Part shown: piece by piece, positions 16,501-45,753 of the stretch | How the letters are laid out: the number at the start of each line of letters is the position of its first letter | How positions within the stretch are numbered: position 1 is the first letter of the stretch | Assembly (NCBI GenBank): GCA_965204085.1 | Contig: CBDBEE010000003.1 | Span: 1,449,981-1,513,980 of the forward strand | Direction of reading: 5' to 3' | DNA: 64,000 nt | Source of the DNA: Candidatus Poribacteria bacterium | Lineage (GTDB): Bacteria > Poribacteria > WGA-4E > JAJDTR01 | Position numbers and translations under genes: made by a program | The notes under the pieces: model-generated | Told to the model about the DNA's origin: nothing | Seen by the model: the letters and a program-made list of their open reading frames with translations, nothing else | Databases searched by the model: none

Positions 16501-18030
16501 ATGGCAAGAGAAGTTAGACCCGATGAAGTTTCAAATATACTAAAACAACAATTGCTGCAATTCAATCAACAGGTCGACGTTTACGATTCCGGGACAGTCT
16601 TGGATGTTGGTGACGGAATCGCACGCGTGCATGGGCTTGCCAATGTCATGGCGAGCGAGATGATTGAATTTCCGAACGATGTGTTCGGAATGGCGTTCAA
16701 CCTAGAGGAAGACAACGTCGGTTGTGTGCTTTTCGGTGAAGACAAATTGATTCACGAAGGCGACCTCGCCAAACGGACCAATCGATTGCTCGAGGTTCCC
16801 GTTGGTGAAGGGTTACTCGGGCGGGTCGTCAATGCGCTGGGGCAACCCATCGACGGAAAAGGAGAACTTGGCACTAGTGAGACACTTCCCGTCGAGCGAA
16901 AAGGATTGGGCATTGTCCAGCGTCAGCCTGTCTCCGAGCCGCTGTATACCGGTTTGAAAGCCATTGACAGCATGACAGCTATCGGGCGCGGACAGCGGGA
17001 GTTGATCATCGGTGACCGTCAAACGGGCAAAACCGCCATTCCGATTGACACAATAATCAATCAGAAAAACACCGACGTGTTCTGTATTTACGTAGCGATA
17101 GGTCAGAAGGGATCGACAGTCGCACAGGTTGTTACCACACTCGAGCAGCACGGCGCAATGGACTACACCATCGTTGTCTCGGCGCCTGCCAGTGAGCCGT
17201 CACCTCTCCAATATCTTGCGCCGTATACCGGCACGTCAATGGGAGAATACTTCCGTGACAAGGGGCAGCATGCACTGATTATTTACGATGATCTCACCAA
17301 ACACGCGTGGGCGTATCGGCAAATGTCCCTACTCTCGCGGCGACCGCCGGGGCGAGAAGCCTATCCCGGTGATGTCTTCTACCTGCACTCAAGATTGCTT
17401 GAGCGATCGGCGAAACTCAGTGACGAGTTGGGAGCCGGTTCGCTGACTTCGCTGCCTATCATCGAGATTTTCGAGGGTGATTTGACCACTTACATTCCTA
17501 CCAATGTAATCTCAATCACGGATGGGCAGATTTATCTAACTTCTGAACTGTTCAATCAAGGTGTGCGTCCGGCAATTGATGTCGGTACGTCGGTATCGCG
17601 TGTCGGCGGGGACGCGCAGACAAAAGCCATGAAAGCCGATGAGGTGGCAGGTACGCTCAAGCTGGATCTAGCCAGTTTCCGCGAAGTTGCCGCATTCGCG
17701 CAGTTCGGTTCCGATCTTGACGCATCCACACAATCCCAGCTCCGCCGTGGCGAGCGACTGGTGGAGTTGCTTAAGCAGCCGCAGTATGAACCGATGCCAG
17801 TGGAAAAACAGATAGTCTCAATCTTCTGTGGATCAACGGGATATCTTGACGATATCGAAGTGGCGGATGTGTCGAGATTTGAGACCGAATTCCTTACCTA
17901 CATGGATAGGAATCATGCGGAACTCCTCAAGGAAATCGCCGAAACTGGCGTTTTGAGCGATGAACTTATTGATGGTCTTCATGAGGCGGTGAAAAGTTTC
18001 AAGGGGCGGTTCAAGGTGAATGAGGCATAG
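16501..18030 (+). CDS. atpA: F0F1 ATP synthase subunit alpha.
   Basis: P-loop [18 protein letters not shown] and conserved alpha-subunit sequence throughout. Confidence 0.95.
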
Positions 18031-18040
18031 AGGTGACGAA

Positions 18041-18244
18041 GTGAAACTAAAAATCATTCTCCACGAAGCGGAAGAGGGTGGATATTGGGCAGAAGTGCCC
18101 TCAATTAAGGGATGTGTGAGTCAAGGTGAGACGCTTGACGACTTGATTGAGAACATCTCTGAGGCAATAGAAGGTTGTTTATCTGTGGATATCAGTGATT
18201 GCGATGTCGGCGAGAAAGACACAGTCATGGAGATAGCCGTTTGA
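18041..18244 (+). CDS. hicB: HicB-family antitoxin (UPF0150-like).
   Basis: KLKIILHEAEEGGYWAEVPSIKGCVSQGETLDDLIENISEAIEGCL matches the HicB N-domain pattern. GTG start. Stop overlaps the hicA TTG start (gtTTGAaat). Confidence 0.65.
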   Translation: MKLKIILHEAEEGGYWAEVPSIKGCVSQGETLDDLIENISEAIEGCLSVDISDCDVGEKDTVMEIAV

Positions 18245-18447
18245 AATCCCTGACGGGAAAAGAGTTTTGCCGTTTATTGAATAGGAAAGGTTGGGAATTG
18301 AAGCGAATCAAGGGCAGTCATTACATTTTCGCCAAGGATGCACCTTCTGCCCGAATCTCGGTTCCCGTTCACGGGAATAAAACTCTCAAGCAAGGCTTGC
18401 AGCGGCATCTCATGAAAATAGCGGGTATTGATGAAAGTGAATTGTAG
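18241..18447 (+). CDS. hicA: HicA-family mRNA interferase toxin.
   Basis: LKSLTGKEFCRLLNRKGWELKRIKGSHYIFAKD...VPVHGNKTLKQGLQRHLMKIAGI is the YcfA/HicA pattern. TTG start at 18241. Confidence 0.65.
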   Translation: MKSLTGKEFCRLLNRKGWELKRIKGSHYIFAKDAPSARISVPVHGNKTLKQGLQRHLMKIAGIDESEL

Positions 18448-31296: not shown

Positions 31297-31494
31297 TGGT
31301 TTATTCCGAGGTCAGCTACGGCACAATTCCGAGATGTCACGTGATGAGAGGAGATCGACGATGTGGTAATTGGGCAAGAAAGAAACCGAGTTTTCAAGCA
31401 AAAACTCGGTTTCAAGGCGAATGTTGCTACTAATACCATTTCGCTTGGATAATTGTGGGTATTATGTTTGGGTTACATCATTTACTTTCCACGT

Positions 31495-31810
31495 AGGCGG
31501 GGCATCTTGCCCCGTCCACTTTGCGCGGAGACAAGGCTTCTTACGATGCTCCACGCAATCAAAGCACTTGAAATTTTGAGAAATGGTTTAAGTACAGATT
31601 TTCAAACAGGCTCTAAGCTCGACTTTGCACGTTTTAGAGACATAATGGAAAGCAAAAATCAAGTGTTGCCCAAAAGCCAAGGAGGTTTTAATTTTCTCGG
31701 TTTTTTGGCAGATCATTGAAAAAGTCGGTAGCGGTTTCTAGTGCCATGCAAATGATATGTTGGGTTTCACTCGAATTTCGGTGTTGCACAGCGGGGCAAG
31801 ATGCCCCGCC
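31495..31810. repeat. MITE-like element: two inverted copies of GTAGGCGGGGCATCTTGCCCCG flanking about 270 bp of non-coding DNA.
   Basis: 31495-31516 gtaggcggggcatcttgccccg, and 31789-31810 is its reverse complement. Each copy is itself a hairpin cggggca-tct-tgccccg. Internal sub-inverted-repeat ctaagctcgactttg / caaagtcgagctaag. Confidence 0.4.
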
Positions 31811-31845
31811 TACAGGTTGGTGTTGTACTTTTGTACAAAGTCGAG

Positions 31846-32094
31846 CTAAGACAATGCGTGCAAATCCCGCTGGCGTTCCTCCCAATCTGGCAGATAGGCG
31901 TGCATGAAACTCCGAAACAGCCTACCGTGATTCGGGGCGAGGAGATGCACCAACTCATGCACAATCACAAACTCCCCCAACGCCATCGGCAGGTCGAGCA
32001 ACTCCGTGCTCAGGGTCAACCGTCCGTTTGTGGATATGGATGCCCACTTTCGACGCATGTCCCGCAGGTGAACTTCGCGCACCGTTACGTCCAT
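31846..32094 (-). pseudogene. C-terminal fragment of a YgjP/DUF45-family zinc metallopeptidase (type I RM-associated).
   Basis: RKWASISTNGRLTLSTELLDLPMALGEFVIVHELVHLLAPNHGRLF...LPDWEERQRDL contains the HExxH motif and the SprT/YgjP-like tail. The N-terminal two thirds of the family are missing. Confidence 0.55.
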
Positions 32095-32551
32095 GCGCTC
32101 CGCCCAGTCGGACGCCGCGCAAGGGCGGATTCATGCGAGCAACCTCACGCATGGCTTCCGTGACGAACTCACCCAAACCGCCGTTTGCCGGATGGTTGCG
32201 GAGTTGCTTCCAACTGTACTTTTGCGGGATATAGAAACGCACAATCGAGCCGCGTTCAGACTTGTGCGCGTCTTCGTGGTCGGCTTCGATAATGTCTCGC
32301 GCCGTTTCTTCATCACCAAATTCGGCAACGCGTTCGGCAAATTCATCATCGAACACATCGGAGAGGCGTTTGTAGAAGATTAACGGCAGGATGAAATCCT
32401 TGAATTTTGGGGCGTCGGTCGCTCCGCGAATCACGCAGACGGCATCCCACAGCCAAGTCTCCAGCGTTGAGATGTCCAATTCTTCTTGTTCTGGCGTTGG
32501 AAATTCAATGTCTGTCTGGGGTGGGGCGGAGGTGGGTTGAGGTTTTGACAA
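31955..32551 (-). pseudogene. hsdM: N-terminal fragment of type I restriction-modification methyltransferase HsdM.
   Basis: LETWLWDAVCVIRGATDAPKFKDFILPLIFYKRLSDVFDDEF...VRFYIPQKYSWKQLRN...GLGEFVTEAMREVARMNPPLRGV matches the HsdM N-terminal domain. Homology ends about 145 aa in. No methyltransferase catalytic domain follows. Confidence 0.6.
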
Positions 32552-32572: not shown

Positions 32573-32893
32573 TTAAATCAACGCGACATTGATGCTTTCC
32601 TGCGTGTCGTGGTTTGACTTTGGACTCACGCGAATCTCAATGTGATAATCCAGTTTCCCCAATAGAGAAAAAAGATGGTCAATCGTAAAGTTCCTCAATC
32701 GGCCATTTCTCAAATCCGTCATTTTTGACCGACTCAGTCCGAGGAAATCCGACGCTGCCTTTTGGGTCATTCCCTCATCGGTAATTAGGCGGTTGATTTT
32801 GTATGCCAATTTCGCTTTTGCCAATCTTTCATCAGGGTTTGGTAGTTCCAAATCCTTGAACACGTTTCCTGAACTAGGGGTGTAGTCTGTCAT
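32573..32893 (-). CDS. XRE-family HTH antitoxin (COG5606-like), partner of the upstream COG4679 toxin.
   Basis: 106 aa. HTH MTQKAASDFLGLSRSKMTDL. Starts 4 nt after the upstream toxin stop. Confidence 0.55.
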   Translation of the reverse strand: MTDYTPSSGNVFKDLELPNPDERLAKAKLAYKINRLITDEGMTQKAASDFLGLSRSKMTDLRNGRLRNFTIDHLFSLLGKLDYHIEIRVSPKSNHDTQESINVALI

Positions 32894-32896
32894 AGC

Positions 32897-33262
32897 TTAT
32901 CTTCCTTTCGCTAATTCTTGAGCCATTTTCAACCGGCGCTTGATAAGATTAATTTCATTCTTGGGCGTCCCGGTACCCCATTTCGATTTCTTTTGAAAGG
33001 TGTGCAGTACGTAAATCGCATCACCGATTTTGGTGGTATACACCGCTCGATAGGTATCGCTTGCATAGTCACTTCGAATCTCCATGACTCCTGAAAACCC
33101 CTTTAGCGGTTTGGCTTTCGGATGTTTGTCTAAAATCTGTGCGATATAAAGCGCGTAGCCCATTTCATCTTGAACATCCGAGGGAAATTGCTTTAAATCT
33201 CTGTATGAAGAACCAACCCAAACTATAGGTTTCATCTTATCTATGTATTTGGTGTCTCTCAT
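32897..33262 (-). CDS. RelE/ParE-superfamily toxin of the phage Gp49-like (COG4679 / HigB-like) type.
   Basis: IVWVGSSYRDLKQFPSDVQDEMGYALYIAQ...GFSGVMEIRSD...YRAVYTTKIGDAIYVLHTFQKKS is the family pattern. Toxin-first order with an XRE partner. Confidence 0.55.
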   Translation of the reverse strand: MRDTKYIDKMKPIVWVGSSYRDLKQFPSDVQDEMGYALYIAQILDKHPKAKPLKGFSGVMEIRSDYASDTYRAVYTTKIGDAIYVLHTFQKKSKWGTGTPKNEINLIKRRLKMAQELAKGR

Positions 33263-33320
33263 AAAGGATTCTTCGCAAAAAACTTAACTTCGTATCTAGA
33301 TATCGCTACGCTCAGCGCAA

Positions 33321-33680
33321 TTATGAGATTGAGGTCAAATCAACATCAAGCGCCGCGGCGATTGCTTTCAACGTTTTGACGGAGCCGGACTTGCGCCCGG
33401 TTTCAATCTCCGCCAAGTAGGCGCGCTGAATGCCGCACTTGTCCGCCAGTTGCTGCTGGGTTAGACCTCGATGGTCGCGGTACACGCGAATCGGACTTTC
33501 CTCGTTAAGAATCAGGCGATTGACGACCTCACCGGGGTAGGTCTCCTCGTTGATGGTTTTGGCTTCGCGGAACTCGCGAATGTCTCTTAGCATCTCCGCA
33601 TCTTCCACAAATTGATTGTACTGTTCTCTCGGTACAAGGACGTATTCCTTGCCCTGTCTTTCGACGGTTTCAATATTCAT
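33321..33680 (-). CDS. XRE-family HTH antitoxin (HigA-like).
   Basis: C-terminal HTH LTQQQLADKCGIQRAYLAEIETG. Its ATG overlaps the end of the upstream RelE-like gene. Confidence 0.6.
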   Translation of the reverse strand: MNIETVERQGKEYVLVPREQYNQFVEDAEMLRDIREFREAKTINEETYPGEVVNRLILNEESPIRVYRDHRGLTQQQLADKCGIQRAYLAEIETGRKSGSVKTLKAIAAALDVDLTSIS

Positions 33681-33933
33681 CGGTATACACCTCCTCTGGA
33701 TCCAATTTTGATGATTTCGATGACGAGGACATCGTCATGAATCTCGTATAACACGCGCCAATCCCCCATCTGAGCCGGTATCCCTCCTCGCCCTCTAAAC
33801 GCGTTACATTGTTGTTCGGCGCGTAGGGGGACACGGCGAGTTGGTCAATCTTTCGCACAACGGTCTTCGCTACATTGCGCGGCATTCGCCGGAGTATCTT
33901 CGCCACGCTCGCTCGGTATTGAACCTTATACAT
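33670..33933 (-). pseudogene. RelE/ParE-family toxin with a -1 frameshift in a G5 tract near the 3' end.
   Basis: Reads YKVQYRASVAKIL...LEGEEGYRLRWGIG, then leaves the family. Adding one G to the run (plus-strand C5 at 33763-33767) restores GDWRVLYEIHDDVLVIEIIKIGSRGGVYR, with stop overlapping the antitoxin ATG as ATGA. Confidence 0.6.
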
Positions 33934-34193
33934 TTTACCCTACATAGTAGCTTAAAGCAACATAAATGTCAAGTGTTTTTTTACCCTTGTGTCAACAATG
34001 GGAAAAACGGCCGCTATAACGAGTGGCGGGACTATTTTGGCGGGGGATTGACGGAAGGCTTGGTCAAGAACCGGCAAGCCCAATCCAATCTGAAAGAAAA
34101 TATCTGGAGCGAAAGGAGCGCGACTTGCAGGCCGTCACTGCAGGACTAGCCAGAAAGCGACTCAATCCGGCATTACGCTTTACGAATTACGCA

Positions 34194-35219
34194 TTATTTC
34201 TTTTCCCACTTATCTTCTTGAACCGCCTCCGACTCGCCCTGTTCAAGAATCTCCGTCCACCACTCTCGATTCTGAGCGTACCACTGCGTGGTTTCCTTGA
34301 GACCGGATTGAAAATCGATTTGCGGTTCCCAATCGAGTTCTCGCCGGATTTTCGAGGAATCCAAGAGGTATCGGCGATCGTGACCCGGGCGGTCGGGGAC
34401 ATAAGTTTTGAGGGATTGCGGTTTTCCCAACGCCGCCAAGACGCCATCGGCGATCTCTTCGACGCTCTGCTCCACGCCGCTTCCGATATTGTAGGTCTCG
34501 CCAATCTTCCCGTTCCGAATGATCAGATCGATAGCTCGGCAGTGGTCGGAGACCGCGAGCCATTCCCGGCGGTTAAGGCTGTTCCTATAGAGCGGAAGCG
34601 GTTTATCGTCAAGGGCATGCGTGGTGAAGAGGGGGATCACCTTCTCGGGGTGTTGATAGGCGCCGTAGTTGTTCGAGCAGTTGGAGATGGTGACGGGAAG
34701 CCCATAGGTTTCAAAATAGGCGCGCACCGCGTGATCCGCCGCCGCTTTGGAGGCGTTGTACGGTGTGCGCGGAGAATACGGGTGGTTTTCCGTGAACTTT
34801 ACCGGTGAATCCAGCGCGAGATCGCCGTAGACCTCGCACGTGGAGATGTGGTGAAATCGTGAGACTTTGTGTTTGCGGGCAAGTTCGAGCAGCATCAGTG
34901 TGCCCATGACATTCGTCTCAAAGAAAAGGCGAGGGTTGAGCACCGCGCGGCTGTTGTGGGATTCAGCGGCGAAATTCACAATCACCTCCGGACGATGTTC
35001 TTCAATGAGGTTATCGACGCAGTCGGAATCCCCAATATCGCCATGAACAAAGGAGTACCGATCCGGGTATGTATCGCCGACATCGGCGAGGTTATTCAGA
35101 TTGCCCGCGTAGGTCAGGAGATCGATGTTAATAATTGCGTCGCTGGGATAGTGTTGGAGCCAGTAGCGGATGAAGTTACACCCGATAAATCCTGCGCCGC
35201 CTGTGACCAATAGTTTCAT
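34194..35219 (-). CDS. rfbB: dTDP-glucose 4,6-dehydratase.
   Basis: MKLLVTGGAGFIGCNF Rossmann start. YxxxK region (YNASKAAADHAV). Full-length conservation. Confidence 0.9.
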   Translation of the reverse strand: MKLLVTGGAGFIGCNFIRYWLQHYPSDAIINIDLLTYAGNLNNLADVGDTYPDRYSFVHGDIGDSDCVDNLIEEHRPEVIVNFAAESHNSRAVLNPRLFFETNVMGTLMLLELARKHKVSRFHHISTCEVYGDLALDSPVKFTENHPYSPRTPYNASKAAADHAVRAYFETYGLPVTISNCSNNYGAYQHPEKVIPLFTTHALDDKPLPLYRNSLNRREWLAVSDHCRAIDLIIRNGKIGETYNIGSGVEQSVEEIADGVLAALGKPQSLKTYVPDRPGHDRRYLLDSSKIRRELDWEPQIDFQSGLKETTQWYAQNREWWTEILEQGESEAVQEDKWEKK

Positions 35220-35283: not shown

Positions 35284-36059
35284 GTGTTCATTGCCGATTT
35301 GGCGACAAAGGCAGAAAGTGGTCAAATCATTGAGATTTCAGAGATTCATCGCGCCTACGAAGAAAAAGTAGGGAAACCGGTAGGAAAATCGACGGTTTAC
35401 GCGCTTTTACGCCGACACCAGTGGCGAAAAGTGGTTCCGAGACCCCAACCCCCGAAACATGATGAACAAGCTGTCGATGCTTTAAAAAATTCCCCAAGCT
35501 CATTGAACAAGCCCAAACAGAAGCAAAGGAAAGAGGGCTAAGTTTGCGAGTCATGCTCCAAGACGAGGCGCGGTTTGGTCGAATCAATGAACCGAAAAAG
35601 TATTGGGCGCCTAAAGGGATTCGTCCCGTGGTCTTGAAACAGACGGTTAGGGAATACACCTATGCGTATGGCGCGGTCAGTCCAGTTGATGGCGCATGTG
35701 ATTTTCTAATTCTGCCTCATATGAACAGTTATTCGATGAATCTTTTCCTGGCTGAAATATCCCAAAGACACCCCAATGAGTTCATTTTAATGATATATGA
35801 CCAAGCGCCAAGTCATAGTAAATCCGCTTTGGAAATCCCGGAGCGGATGATGGTCGAAACATTACCTCCGTATTGTCCGCAACTCAATCCGGTGGAACAT
35901 GTCTGGGACGAATTACGGGGGAAATTCTTCCCTAACCTCATCTTCAACGATATGGCTCAGCTAGAGGAGACGTTGATTGAAGGTCTCCTCTACTTCGAGG
36001 CTCAGTCGCACATCGTTCAATCCATTACTGGATTCGACTGGTTTGTGAGTAACATTTAG
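35284..36059 (+). mobile_element. IS630-family (Tc1/mariner-like, DDE_3) transposase remnant. 5' truncated and split by a -1 frameshift at an A6 run.
   Basis: ORF1 carries only the second HTH (STVYALLRRHQWRKVVPRP). ORF2 has VMLQDEARFG...WAPKGIRP and LPPYCPQLNPVEHVWDELRGK (DDE_3). Reading through needs A7 at 35484-35489. The first roughly 60 aa HTH is missing. Gene abuts the rfbB start. Confidence 0.65.
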
Positions 36060-38117: not shown

Positions 38118-38225
38118 GGTTTGTATGCAGTTGATTACTGTTAGATGATATGTTACACTTATAACCCTAGAAAGGGGATAGTCATCTCAGGAACTATTCC
38201 GAATCGTGTTAATGGAGGTGAGATC

Positions 38226-38825
38226 ATGTCGTCTGTCGCTGTACAGTCCCACCTTACGCCAGCCGAGTATTTGGCTTTGGAGCGTAAGGCGACTACGAAA
38301 AGTGAGTATTTCGACGGTCAAATCTATGCGATGTCAGGGGCAAGTCGCGCGCATAATCTTATCGTGGTGAACCTACTAAGTGCGTTGCACACTCAATTAA
38401 GCAAACGGGATTGTGAGGTTTACGCCAACGATATGCGTGTGAAAGTTGACGTGACAGGGCTATACACCTACCCGGATGTCCTCGTTGTCTGTGATGAGCC
38501 ACGCTTTGAGGACGCCAGTCTTGACACACTTCTCAATCCGAACGTGCTTGTGGAAGTCCTCTCTCCCTCAACTGAAGCATACGATCGTGGCGAAAAATTC
38601 TCGCACTATCGCCATCTAAAATCGCTGCAAGAATATGTGCTGGTGGCACAAAACTGCATTCGTGTCGAGCACTATCTGCGTCAAGAGGAACAGTGGCTTC
38701 TAACTGAATTCGATGAATCTGTTGATCTATTCCGTTTGCCTTCAATCAATTGCGAACTTTCCACTCGTGCGATCTATGCAAAGGTGAAACTTTCTACCGA
38801 TGCGCTGCGGCAGCAGGAACTCTGA
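38226..38825 (+). CDS. Uma2-family (DUF820) putative endonuclease.
   Basis: LTPAEYLALERKATTKSEYFDGQIYAMSGASRAHNLIV...CEVYANDMRVKV...YPDVLVVCDE...EVLSPST matches the Uma2 / restriction-endonuclease-like fold family. ATG at 38226 preferred over 38145. Confidence 0.65.
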   Translation: MSSVAVQSHLTPAEYLALERKATTKSEYFDGQIYAMSGASRAHNLIVVNLLSALHTQLSKRDCEVYANDMRVKVDVTGLYTYPDVLVVCDEPRFEDASLDTLLNPNVLVEVLSPSTEAYDRGEKFSHYRHLKSLQEYVLVAQNCIRVEHYLRQEEQWLLTEFDESVDLFRLPSINCELSTRAIYAKVKLSTDALRQQEL

Positions 38826-38904: not shown

Positions 38905-39282
38905 ATGGTTGACCCAAAAGACATTAAAGCAACCTGCGACGACATCGTCCGAGAGTTTGCCCCCCTGAAGGTTATCCTCTTCGGTTCCTATGCTTACGGA
39001 ACGCCTACCGAGGATTCGGATGTTGACCTGTTGGTGGTGATGCCCGTTCCGGAATCGCAAACCCGCAGCCTAGCGGTAGAGATTCGGCGACGTATCCCGC
39101 GCCGCTTTCACATGGATCTGGTTGTCCGGTCGCCGGAAGAGATTGCCTACCGCGTTTCGCATAACGACTGGTTTCTCCGAGAGGTGATGCAGGAGGGTCA
39201 GGTGCTTTATGAATCCGTTGACACTGGAGTGGTGACTGACAGTCACTCCCCCTTTGCAACGAAATGTCCTTCCGCTTCATAG
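38905..39282 (+). CDS. Nucleotidyltransferase-domain protein (minimal MNT, Pol-beta superfamily). No HEPN partner seen.
   Basis: GS...D.D motif: LFGSYAYGTPTEDSDVDLLVV. Confidence 0.6.
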   Translation: MVDPKDIKATCDDIVREFAPLKVILFGSYAYGTPTEDSDVDLLVVMPVPESQTRSLAVEIRRRIPRRFHMDLVVRSPEEIAYRVSHNDWFLREVMQEGQVLYESVDTGVVTDSHSPFATKCPSAS

Positions 39283-45312: not shown

Positions 45313-45753
45313 CTAACAAATACATCGAAGATATTTTTTGTTCTTCGGTGGTTGTACTTCCAGACGGGCTTCGGCGACGTACAACGGCATAAACTTCACT
45401 TTGTACTTGTGGTGTTGTCCGTACCACGCGCGTTTAAGCAACGACCAGAACCCTTCGAGTGTGTTGGTATGGATTTCGCCATCCACAAATCTTTCTGAAT
45501 GATTGACACTCTTGCGTTTTATGAACCTTTCCAGGCTCTTGTAAACGTTATTTTCGTCCGCCATGAGCGTTGACCCGCCCGTGTCCACTCTGGAAAGTAT
45601 AAAACTCAATGCCTCTCCCACCGTCACGCTACTTACCGCCTTGCCAACAACCTTCCCGCCACGCTCTACTGCTCCGATCGCCGGGGTTTTCTTGGACCGA
45701 TTCTTCTCCGGATTGTGCGTGTCATCATCATCTGGAGTGTTCGGCAACAGCAA
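45313..45753 (-). mobile_element. IS1595-family (ISXO2-like) transposase C-terminal fragment.
   Basis: MADENNVYKSLERFIKRKSVNHSERFVDGEIHTNTLEGFWSLLKRAWYGQHHKYKVKFMPLYVAEARL matches the C-terminal DDE_Tnp_IS1595 region. N-terminal zinc-ribbon and DDE core are absent. Confidence 0.6.

Follow-up and report, generated by a model that had tools for sequence, protein, structure and literature searches.

A frameshifted RelE-family toxin gene beside a constrained antitoxin gene in a Candidatus Poribacteria chromosome: a probable early step in toxin-first erosion of a type II toxin–antitoxin module

The 64-kb stretch of DNA analysed here, referred to as the window, is part of a Candidatus Poribacteria chromosome and carries a head-to-tail row of four small minus-strand genes, with open reading frames (ORFs) of 87, 119, 121 and 106 aa (Table 1). 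A preliminary description of this DNA had listed the four ORFs and interpreted them as two adjacent toxin-first type II toxin–antitoxin (TA) modules with XRE-type antitoxins. All four are present in the sequence, and the gene order together with the Pfam matches bears this interpretation out: the region consists of two independent, adjacent type II TA operons, both ordinary representatives of known families and newly recorded from an uncultured phylum. We refer to the two pairs as module A and module B. The promoter-like site of module A, which is close to the consensus and conserved in the orthologues, is located about 10 nt upstream of the toxin A ATG, and a GAGGAGG Shine-Dalgarno sequence is found 6 nt upstream of the ATG of antitoxin A.

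Table 1. Genes and other features of the locus (positions refer to the window)
Feature	Position	Strand	Description
rfbB-type dTDP-glucose 4,6-dehydratase gene	34194..35219	-	left-hand neighbour of module A, conserved across related genomes
promoter-like site, module A	33944..33972	-	TTGACA, 17 nt, TACTAT; scan score 10/12; function predicted
RelE-family toxin A, probable pseudogene	33677..33933	-	ancestral frame from ATG at 33933 to TGA at 33679-33677
toxin A ORF as it stands	33933-33670	-	87 aa, reads through to 33670
antitoxin A, XRE/HTH_3	33321..33680	-	119 aa; PF01381 6.2e-15
toxin B, Gp49/DUF891 (COG4679), intact	32897..33262	-	121 aa; PF05973 1.6e-21
antitoxin B, HTH_37	32573..32893	-	106 aa; PF13744 8.6e-20; PDB 2o38 2.9e-16
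type I R-M operon remnant	31846..32551	-	HsdM N-terminal fragment joined to YgjP-like C-terminal fragment

All relatives identified among reference genomes are Candidatus Poribacteria MAGs. On one side of module A the rfbB-type gene is syntenic in the loci designated here L001–L003, L006–L011 and L014–L016, and its product is 89–98% identical to that of the window at the amino acid level. In the closest clade the gene order is rfbB, module A, a variable segment, (HTH_37) hsdM-hsdS, a ygjP-like gene and an acyltransferase gene. The type I R-M system beside module A has itself been deleted repeatedly. In the window an N-terminal HsdM fragment extending from 32551 to about 32110 abuts a YgjP-like C-terminal fragment at 32094–31846, and a profile search of this remnant returned HsdM_N only and, for the YgjP-like part, positions 127–205 of 207. 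The similarity of the L001 and L003 hsdM genes to the window ends at window position 32110, and L001 has intact HsdM (546 aa) and HsdS (420 aa) proteins. Past rfbB, the window carries an IS630-type transposase in two ORFs in place of the genes found in L001–L003. The segment is a variable turnover hot spot that is losing genes in this genome, and the deletion of the type I R-M operon indicates that the locus is decaying in this lineage.

Module B is intact and presumably active. Toxin B matches PF05973 at 76.6 bits (cutoff 23.9) over profile positions 2–90 of 90, and its length agrees with that of its 1658 homologues, most of which are 120–121 aa long. The antitoxin B gene, of the HTH_37 type, lies directly downstream of the Gp49 gene and begins 3 nt past the toxin B stop. 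A search with NCBIfam yielded no match in module B, and comparison of toxin B with PDB sequences, alone and as a profile, gave no significant match (6af3, E=0.49). The AlphaFold model of toxin B (pLDDT 88) has Mycobacterium tuberculosis HigB1 as its best PDB fold (7nbu_Y, 7awk), with a TM score of 0.66–0.67 and 17% sequence identity, followed by RelE, ParE2 and HigB2 structures. The model thus predicts a RelE/HigB-type fold for toxin B, and the earlier assignment of this protein as an intact COG4679/Gp49-like toxin holds (PF05973, 1.6e-21).

The toxin gene of module A is different in that its 87-aa ORF, as it stands, has no family match in Pfam. When one base is restored, the resulting 85-aa product matches PF05016 at 37.1 bits (cutoff 23), with a weak score of 24.0 on TIGR02385 (RelE_StbE), below the cutoff of 27.9. 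The intact orthologues of toxin A all carry PF05016. The gene is thus a member of this family by descent, whereas its present product is not. The repaired protein also matches RelE relatives in the PDB by sequence, among them 1wmi (E=4e-6), 2khe, M. tuberculosis RelE1 (9g12) and Escherichia coli RelE, so that archaeal, Thermus, mycobacterial and E. coli structures are represented, and on this evidence toxin A is assigned to the group of RelE proper. The preliminary description had regarded this toxin as a frameshifted member of the RelE/ParE superfamily and had proposed profile searches as a check; the 37.1-bit PF05016 match of the repaired product, together with the COG4679-type match of toxin B, agrees with what it anticipated. 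It had also noted that a restored frame ends in an ATGA stop/start overlap with the antitoxin gene. The −1 frame ORF at 33769–33677, which encodes GDWRVLYEIHDDVLVIEIIKIGSRGGVYR, does end in this way, its stop overlapping the antitoxin A ATG as ATGA.

Comparison with orthologues, another check that had been proposed, confirmed the frameshift relative to related genes and placed the lesion outside the homopolymer in which it had been assumed to lie. The run at 33763–33767 consists of five bases, as first described, and it has the same length in the window and in more than 20 intact orthologues. These orthologues, including the near-identical scaffold L039, read AGAGTGGGGGAT (RLRVGDW). At the DNA level the intact genes (L001, L002, L003, L039 and others) read CTCAGAGTGGGGGATTGG, whereas the window has CTCAGA-TGGGGGATTGG. 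The lost base is the leading G of codon 56 (GTG, Val), located between 33769 and 33768 and flanked by A and T. A slip within the homopolymer was rejected as the lesion, since the run length is unchanged relative to the intact orthologues and the neighbouring G is lost. The alternative alignment produced by MAFFT, with a gap inside the run and two mismatches, was rejected as less parsimonious than a single deletion. The deletion allele corresponds to AGATGGGGG and the intact allele to AGAGTGGGGG.

The exact position of the lesion affects the reconstruction of the ancestral protein. Because the G of the GTG valine codon is absent from the window, the ancestral residue 56 is V and not W. A search with the repaired toxin A returned many 85-aa relatives, every one with YRLRVGDWRV, and the family motif YRLRWG given in the preliminary description (YRLRWGDWRV in the repaired frame) occurs in none of the orthologues. 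Adding a base to the run, as had been suggested, does restore the reading frame and fails to recover the ancestral state, yielding W56 instead of V56.

The product encoded in the window retains residues 1–55 and continues in a 32-residue out-of-frame tail. In an alignment with E. coli RelE, the ancestral toxin has R60, R80 and Y84 opposite R61, R81 and Y87 of RelE, and all three lie after the shift, so their equivalents are absent from the encoded product. In E. coli RelE, R61, R81 and Y87 are catalytic and ribosome-contact residues. With the beta-sheet core lost along with the equivalents of the catalytic Arg, Arg and Tyr, toxin A would be dead, and the frameshifted product should be non-toxic.

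Antitoxin A has its XRE/HTH_3 DNA-binding domain at the C-terminus (residues 64–116), and the N-terminal part of about 60 aa is presumed to bind the toxin. HigA2 has the same layout, an N-terminal extension followed by a C-terminal HTH. In comparisons with PDB sequences the HTH domain alone of antitoxin A found matches, with no solved antitoxin matching outside the HTH, and the N-terminal 67 aa gave only an insignificant PhdYefM match (E=0.09). The antitoxin A protein is identical on three other metagenomic contigs (L001–L003), each with an intact toxin gene upstream; the window gene differs from these three by 0 nonsynonymous and 14–21 synonymous substitutions. Private changes in the window antitoxin A number 0 nonsynonymous to 5 synonymous. 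Across genomes with an intact toxin the median dN/dS of antitoxin A is 0.07, indicating strong purifying selection, and in the toxin-less loci L009 and L012 it is 0.06 and 0.12, respectively, when measured against their nearest neighbours. With a Shine-Dalgarno sequence of its own and the operon promoter further upstream, antitoxin A need not be expressed any less because of the lesion. The toxin A frame is disrupted relative to syntenic intact orthologues, while antitoxin A is intact and constrained.

We propose that the deletion in toxin A is a real mutation, and that the gene is a young pseudogene representing an early step of toxin-first erosion. We assign this interpretation a probability of about 0.6. 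The distribution of sequence changes unique to the window is informative in this respect. An alignment of 1180 nt with six close relatives shows 8 changes private to the window, all of them within 33975–33769, a cluster of 207 nt that comprises the promoter and the first two thirds of toxin A. The probability of such clustering by chance is about 4e-5 as estimated by hand arithmetic. Three are substitutions in the promoter region (T>C at 33975; A>T at 33946, within the −10 box; A>G at 33943), and the others are the replacements A10V, M13I and K47E, one synonymous substitution, and the deletion. The four coding substitutions are at 33905, 33895, 33799 and 33795. The −10 box reads TACTAT in the window compared with TACAAT in all other orthologues. 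K47E is a charge reversal at a position occupied by K or T in all orthologues. The private coding substitutions in the window toxin are 3 nonsynonymous to 1 synonymous, compared with 0 nonsynonymous to 8 synonymous in the intact toxins of L002, L003, L006 and L007 taken together; the difference yields p ~0.02 by Fisher's exact test, calculated by hand from small counts. Downstream of the deletion, toxin A contains zero window-private changes, which indicates either that the pseudogene is young or that the indel is an error.

The second of these possibilities, that the base was dropped in assembly or consensus calling and the genome encodes an intact 85-aa toxin (RLRVGDW...) and thus a functional TA pair in module A, is in our estimate somewhat unlikely, and several observations speak for it. 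The frameshifted toxin A ORF is known from this single contig. Neither allele (TACCGGCTCAGA[N]TGGGGGATTGGCG) was detected among JGI metagenome contigs (0 matches), so these contigs supplied no second occurrence of the deletion. The closest relative, L039, a 2,191-bp scaffold from an independent sample with the same four-gene arrangement, has an intact toxin A and is identical to the window over 34507–34149 and 33600–32318, and all 23 mismatches and the one gap between the two sequences are confined to 34148–33601. A patch that differs between otherwise identical sequences suggests recombination or a mixture of strains, and a strain-variable segment of this kind is more prone to consensus errors. 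The lesion lies inside this patch and adjoins the G5 run, and the absence of private changes downstream of it would also be expected if the base were simply missing from the assembly. In addition, locus L004 shows a true run-length loss, from G5 to G4, only 1–5 nt from the window lesion. The L004 contig is labelled 4x and its AhpC gene is called in three pieces, so the loss there is probably an error, which shows that almost the same place can be miscalled in a low-coverage assembly of the same kind.

The remaining evidence runs against an error. The usual consensus error in long-read data is a change in run length, whereas here the run is unaltered and the lost base lies between an A and a T. 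The intact toxin of L039, between flanks identical to those of the window, counts on this side as well. Nor would an indel error account for the seven substitutions private to the window in this promoter and toxin, three of the four coding ones being nonsynonymous. A generally indel-ridden assembly was also considered and rejected after ORFs had been tiled and checked against Pfam: the approximately 57 kb of coding sequence in the window shows no further single-base frameshift, and the rest of the window tiles into long intact ORFs, with broken genes limited to IS fragments and the R-M deletion remnant. Moreover, real inactivation of the toxin is common in this clade (see below). The comparative evidence leans towards a real inactivation of toxin A. 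A third explanation, that the shift is functional and that low-rate −1 slippage of tRNA-Gly on the G5 run (U GGG GGA) produces a full-length RLRWGDW... toxin at a throttled dose, is very improbable: the sequence would permit re-pairing from GGG to GGG after a backward step of one base, and translation in the −1 frame recovers the whole conserved C-terminus and the ATGA overlap, but the arrangement is unique to this contig while all other orthologues encode the toxin in one frame, a G5 without a stimulator is a poor slip site, and the product would carry V56W at an invariant valine.

If the deletion is a real mutation, it is one of several toxin defects among related genomes. Toxin A is intact in about twenty Poribacteria loci, which were fetched via the antitoxin. 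In L009 the gene is interrupted by a nonsense mutation (CGA to TGA) at codon 16. L005, which is the same as L024 (on a contig labelled 74x), has an IS605/TnpB insertion after codon 62, and L026 has a 27-nt in-frame deletion. The toxin gene of L029 has collapsed in frame to 12 codons, with the antitoxin also shifted. L012 has undergone a near-total deletion that kept the promoter, the last codons and the antitoxin, and in L025 and L028 only a tail reading GGVYR and a stop is left before the antitoxin. The promoter of module A is kept despite the toxin deletion in both L012 and L029. Loss of the toxin alone has recurred independently in related Poribacteria genomes, through a nonsense mutation, the IS605 insertion and deletions, and each time the antitoxin was retained. 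Because the loci were found with the antitoxin as query, losses of both genes or of the antitoxin alone are invisible in this collection, and the opposite kind of loss would be missed. Module B shows the same tendency, with an antitoxin gene present without its toxin gene in relatives: L001, L003 and L007 encode an antitoxin B about 93–95% identical to that of the window, its gene immediately preceding hsdM and the Gp49 gene being absent, and the Gp49 and HTH_37 genes occur together in the window, L039 and L012.

The two modules combine features of several known systems. Repaired toxin A resembles the RelE/RelB-type ribosome-dependent mRNA interferases (E. coli RelE; Pyrococcus horikoshii aRelE, 1wmi; PF05016) in its length of 85 aa. 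Module A differs from these systems in having the toxin gene first and in having an XRE-HTH antitoxin rather than the RelB ribbon-helix-helix type, as well as in that its toxin is frameshifted in this genome and has no profile match as it stands. Toxin-first order and XRE-type antitoxins are shared by modules A and B with HigBA (M. tuberculosis HigB1, Rv1955; Vibrio cholerae HigB2/HigA2). Coupling of the two genes is by the ATGA overlap in module A, in its ancestral frame, and by a 3-nt spacer in module B. The folds of HigB1 and HigB2 (5ja8) resemble the toxin B model, whereas neither toxin A nor toxin B matches the HigB Pfam family PF05015. The label HigB/HigA-like, which had initially been applied to both modules, is therefore fair for the second module by fold (HigB1, TM 0.66) and finds no counterpart in family assignment for either toxin. 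The toxin of module A is RelE-like, and its gene order and class of antitoxin are HigA-like.

Decay of type II TA modules has been documented in other bacteria. In a 2026 survey of Photorhabdus, pseudogenisation affected the toxin alone in 185 copies, both genes in 186 and the antitoxin alone in 8 (PMC13617665), so that toxin-only cases far outnumber antitoxin-only ones. TA decay via nonsense mutations and deletions has been described, and orphan antitoxins have been considered as possible anti-addiction factors (PMC7167474, PMC7354431); a parE pseudogene of Caulobacter and a frameshifted yacB of Shigella are cited in PMC7354431. Module A resembles the eroding systems, such as ccdO157 of E. 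coli and those of Photorhabdus, in having a small mutation in the toxin with the antitoxin and promoter intact, in the several independent toxin losses in sister genomes, and in its location in a region of high gene turnover. It differs from them in belonging to another phylum (Poribacteria MAGs), in being known here from sequence alone, and in that the same neighbour, rfbB, is kept across genomes (RfbB 89–98% identical). The locus fits the well-described pattern in which chromosomal type II TA systems erode from the toxin first.

These results lead us to propose the following scenario. Module A would ancestrally have encoded an 85-aa RelE-family toxin, a ribosome-dependent mRNA endonuclease, with the stop of its gene overlapping the antitoxin start, and an antitoxin with a neutralising segment at its N-terminus and an XRE DNA-binding domain at its C-terminus. 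Deletion of a single G in codon 56 (GTG) would have shifted the frame, leaving 55 residues in place and removing the catalytic core. Antitoxin A would still be made from its own Shine-Dalgarno sequence and the operon promoter, and it could act as an autorepressor, serve as an orphan or anti-addiction antitoxin, or have no role and simply not yet be lost. The one-base deletion could then be viewed as an early step in the usual toxin-first erosion of chromosomal TA modules.

For annotation, the segment 33933–33677 should be labelled as a RelE-family pseudogene or as a possible frameshift, and the correct repair of toxin A is V56, with the G of GTG restored, rather than a longer homopolymer. Taken together with its relatives, the locus provides a natural series of toxin-first erosion in an uncultured phylum, ranging from missense changes and a one-base deletion, via a nonsense mutation and an IS insertion, to deletions that are in frame or almost complete and spare the promoter and antitoxin. 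This series supports existing models of TA decay and opens no new question. A single point has wider interest: in this clade the antitoxin and promoter have repeatedly survived the loss of the toxin, and this survival could, with low probability, reflect a retained function. One can speculate that the module A antitoxin and its promoter have been maintained by strong purifying selection across numerous independent toxin losses, with the protein now acting as a domesticated regulator or protecting against incoming RelE-type toxins as an anti-addiction or immunity factor, although we regard this as unlikely. If it were true, the antitoxin would no longer be only an antidote, and would be anchored at the edge of a defence hot spot.

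The module A region of the window was compared with L039, a 2,191-bp scaffold that carries the same four-gene layout with the module A toxin intact. The two share approximately 1.6 kb of flanking sequence without any difference, and the differences that exist (23 positions and one gap) fall within approximately 550 bp, at 34148–33601 of the window. This divergent patch takes in intergenic sequence, the toxin and codons 1–25 of the antitoxin. It is either a mosaic that arose by recombination or the mark of a chimeric short-read scaffold. In the related locus L005 (6001–8665; the same locus as L024), from a genome of 6.76 Mb with a contig labeled 74x, the orthologous toxin is broken after codon 62 by an IS605-family TnpB (OrfB_IS605) element, with an intact antitoxin 2 kb downstream.

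Features of the window and of related loci L001, L003 and L007 (positions within the window unless a locus is named)
Feature	Position	Strand	Remarks
HicB-like antitoxin and HicA toxin	18020–18447	+	
Hairpin, 14-bp stem	31382–31413		built on GAAACCGAGTTTT
Inverted repeat pair, 22 nt, perfect	31493–31514 and 31792–31813		encloses 277 nt, just downstream of R-M scar
HsdM N-terminal fragment fused to YgjP-like C-terminal fragment	31846–32551	-	
Palindrome TATCTAGATA, 10 nt, perfect	33293–33302		in 58-nt inter-module spacer, upstream of Gp49 toxin gene
IS630-type transposase, two adjacent ORFs	35284–36059	+	HTH_33 (85 aa) and DDE_3 (171 aa)
Uma2-family putative endonuclease	38145–38825	+	
Nucleotidyltransferase, MNT-type (NTP_transf_2)	38905–39282	+	after Uma2-family gene
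146-aa ORF	45313–45753	-	sole match: positions 26–148 of IS1595 (ISXO2-like) transposase domain
Orphan HTH_37 antitoxin genes	L001 7102–7422; L003 5806–6126; L007 5902–6219		directly upstream of hsdM

The junction between the HsdM and YgjP-like fragments is a deletion scar, most of the type I R-M operon being gone. The operon is intact in L001, and the deletions in L004 and L015 have end-points other than those of the window. The motif GAAACCGAGTTTT occurs in four copies in the window compared to 0.12 expected by chance, is also present upstream of L012 and L029, two loci from which the module A toxin has been deleted, and may represent a family of terminators or a small repeat element.

Synteny with the relatives stops at the IS630-type transposase, at a site occupied in L001–L003 by PTPS and other genes. 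The 146-aa ORF is probably an IS fragment. The MNT-type gene has no obvious HEPN partner, unlike in L003, where a HEPN and MNT pair is located nearby. Separate from modules A and B, the HicB-like/HicA pair is a third TA module of the window.

The HTH_37 antitoxin of module B has a candidate operator in the palindrome TATCTAGATA. The orphan HTH_37 genes of L001, L003 and L007 are approximately 93–95% identical to the antitoxin gene of the window, and a Gp49 toxin gene is absent beside HTH_37-hsdM in all three loci. Either the module B toxin has been lost there too, or the HTH_37 protein is functionally connected with the R-M operon.
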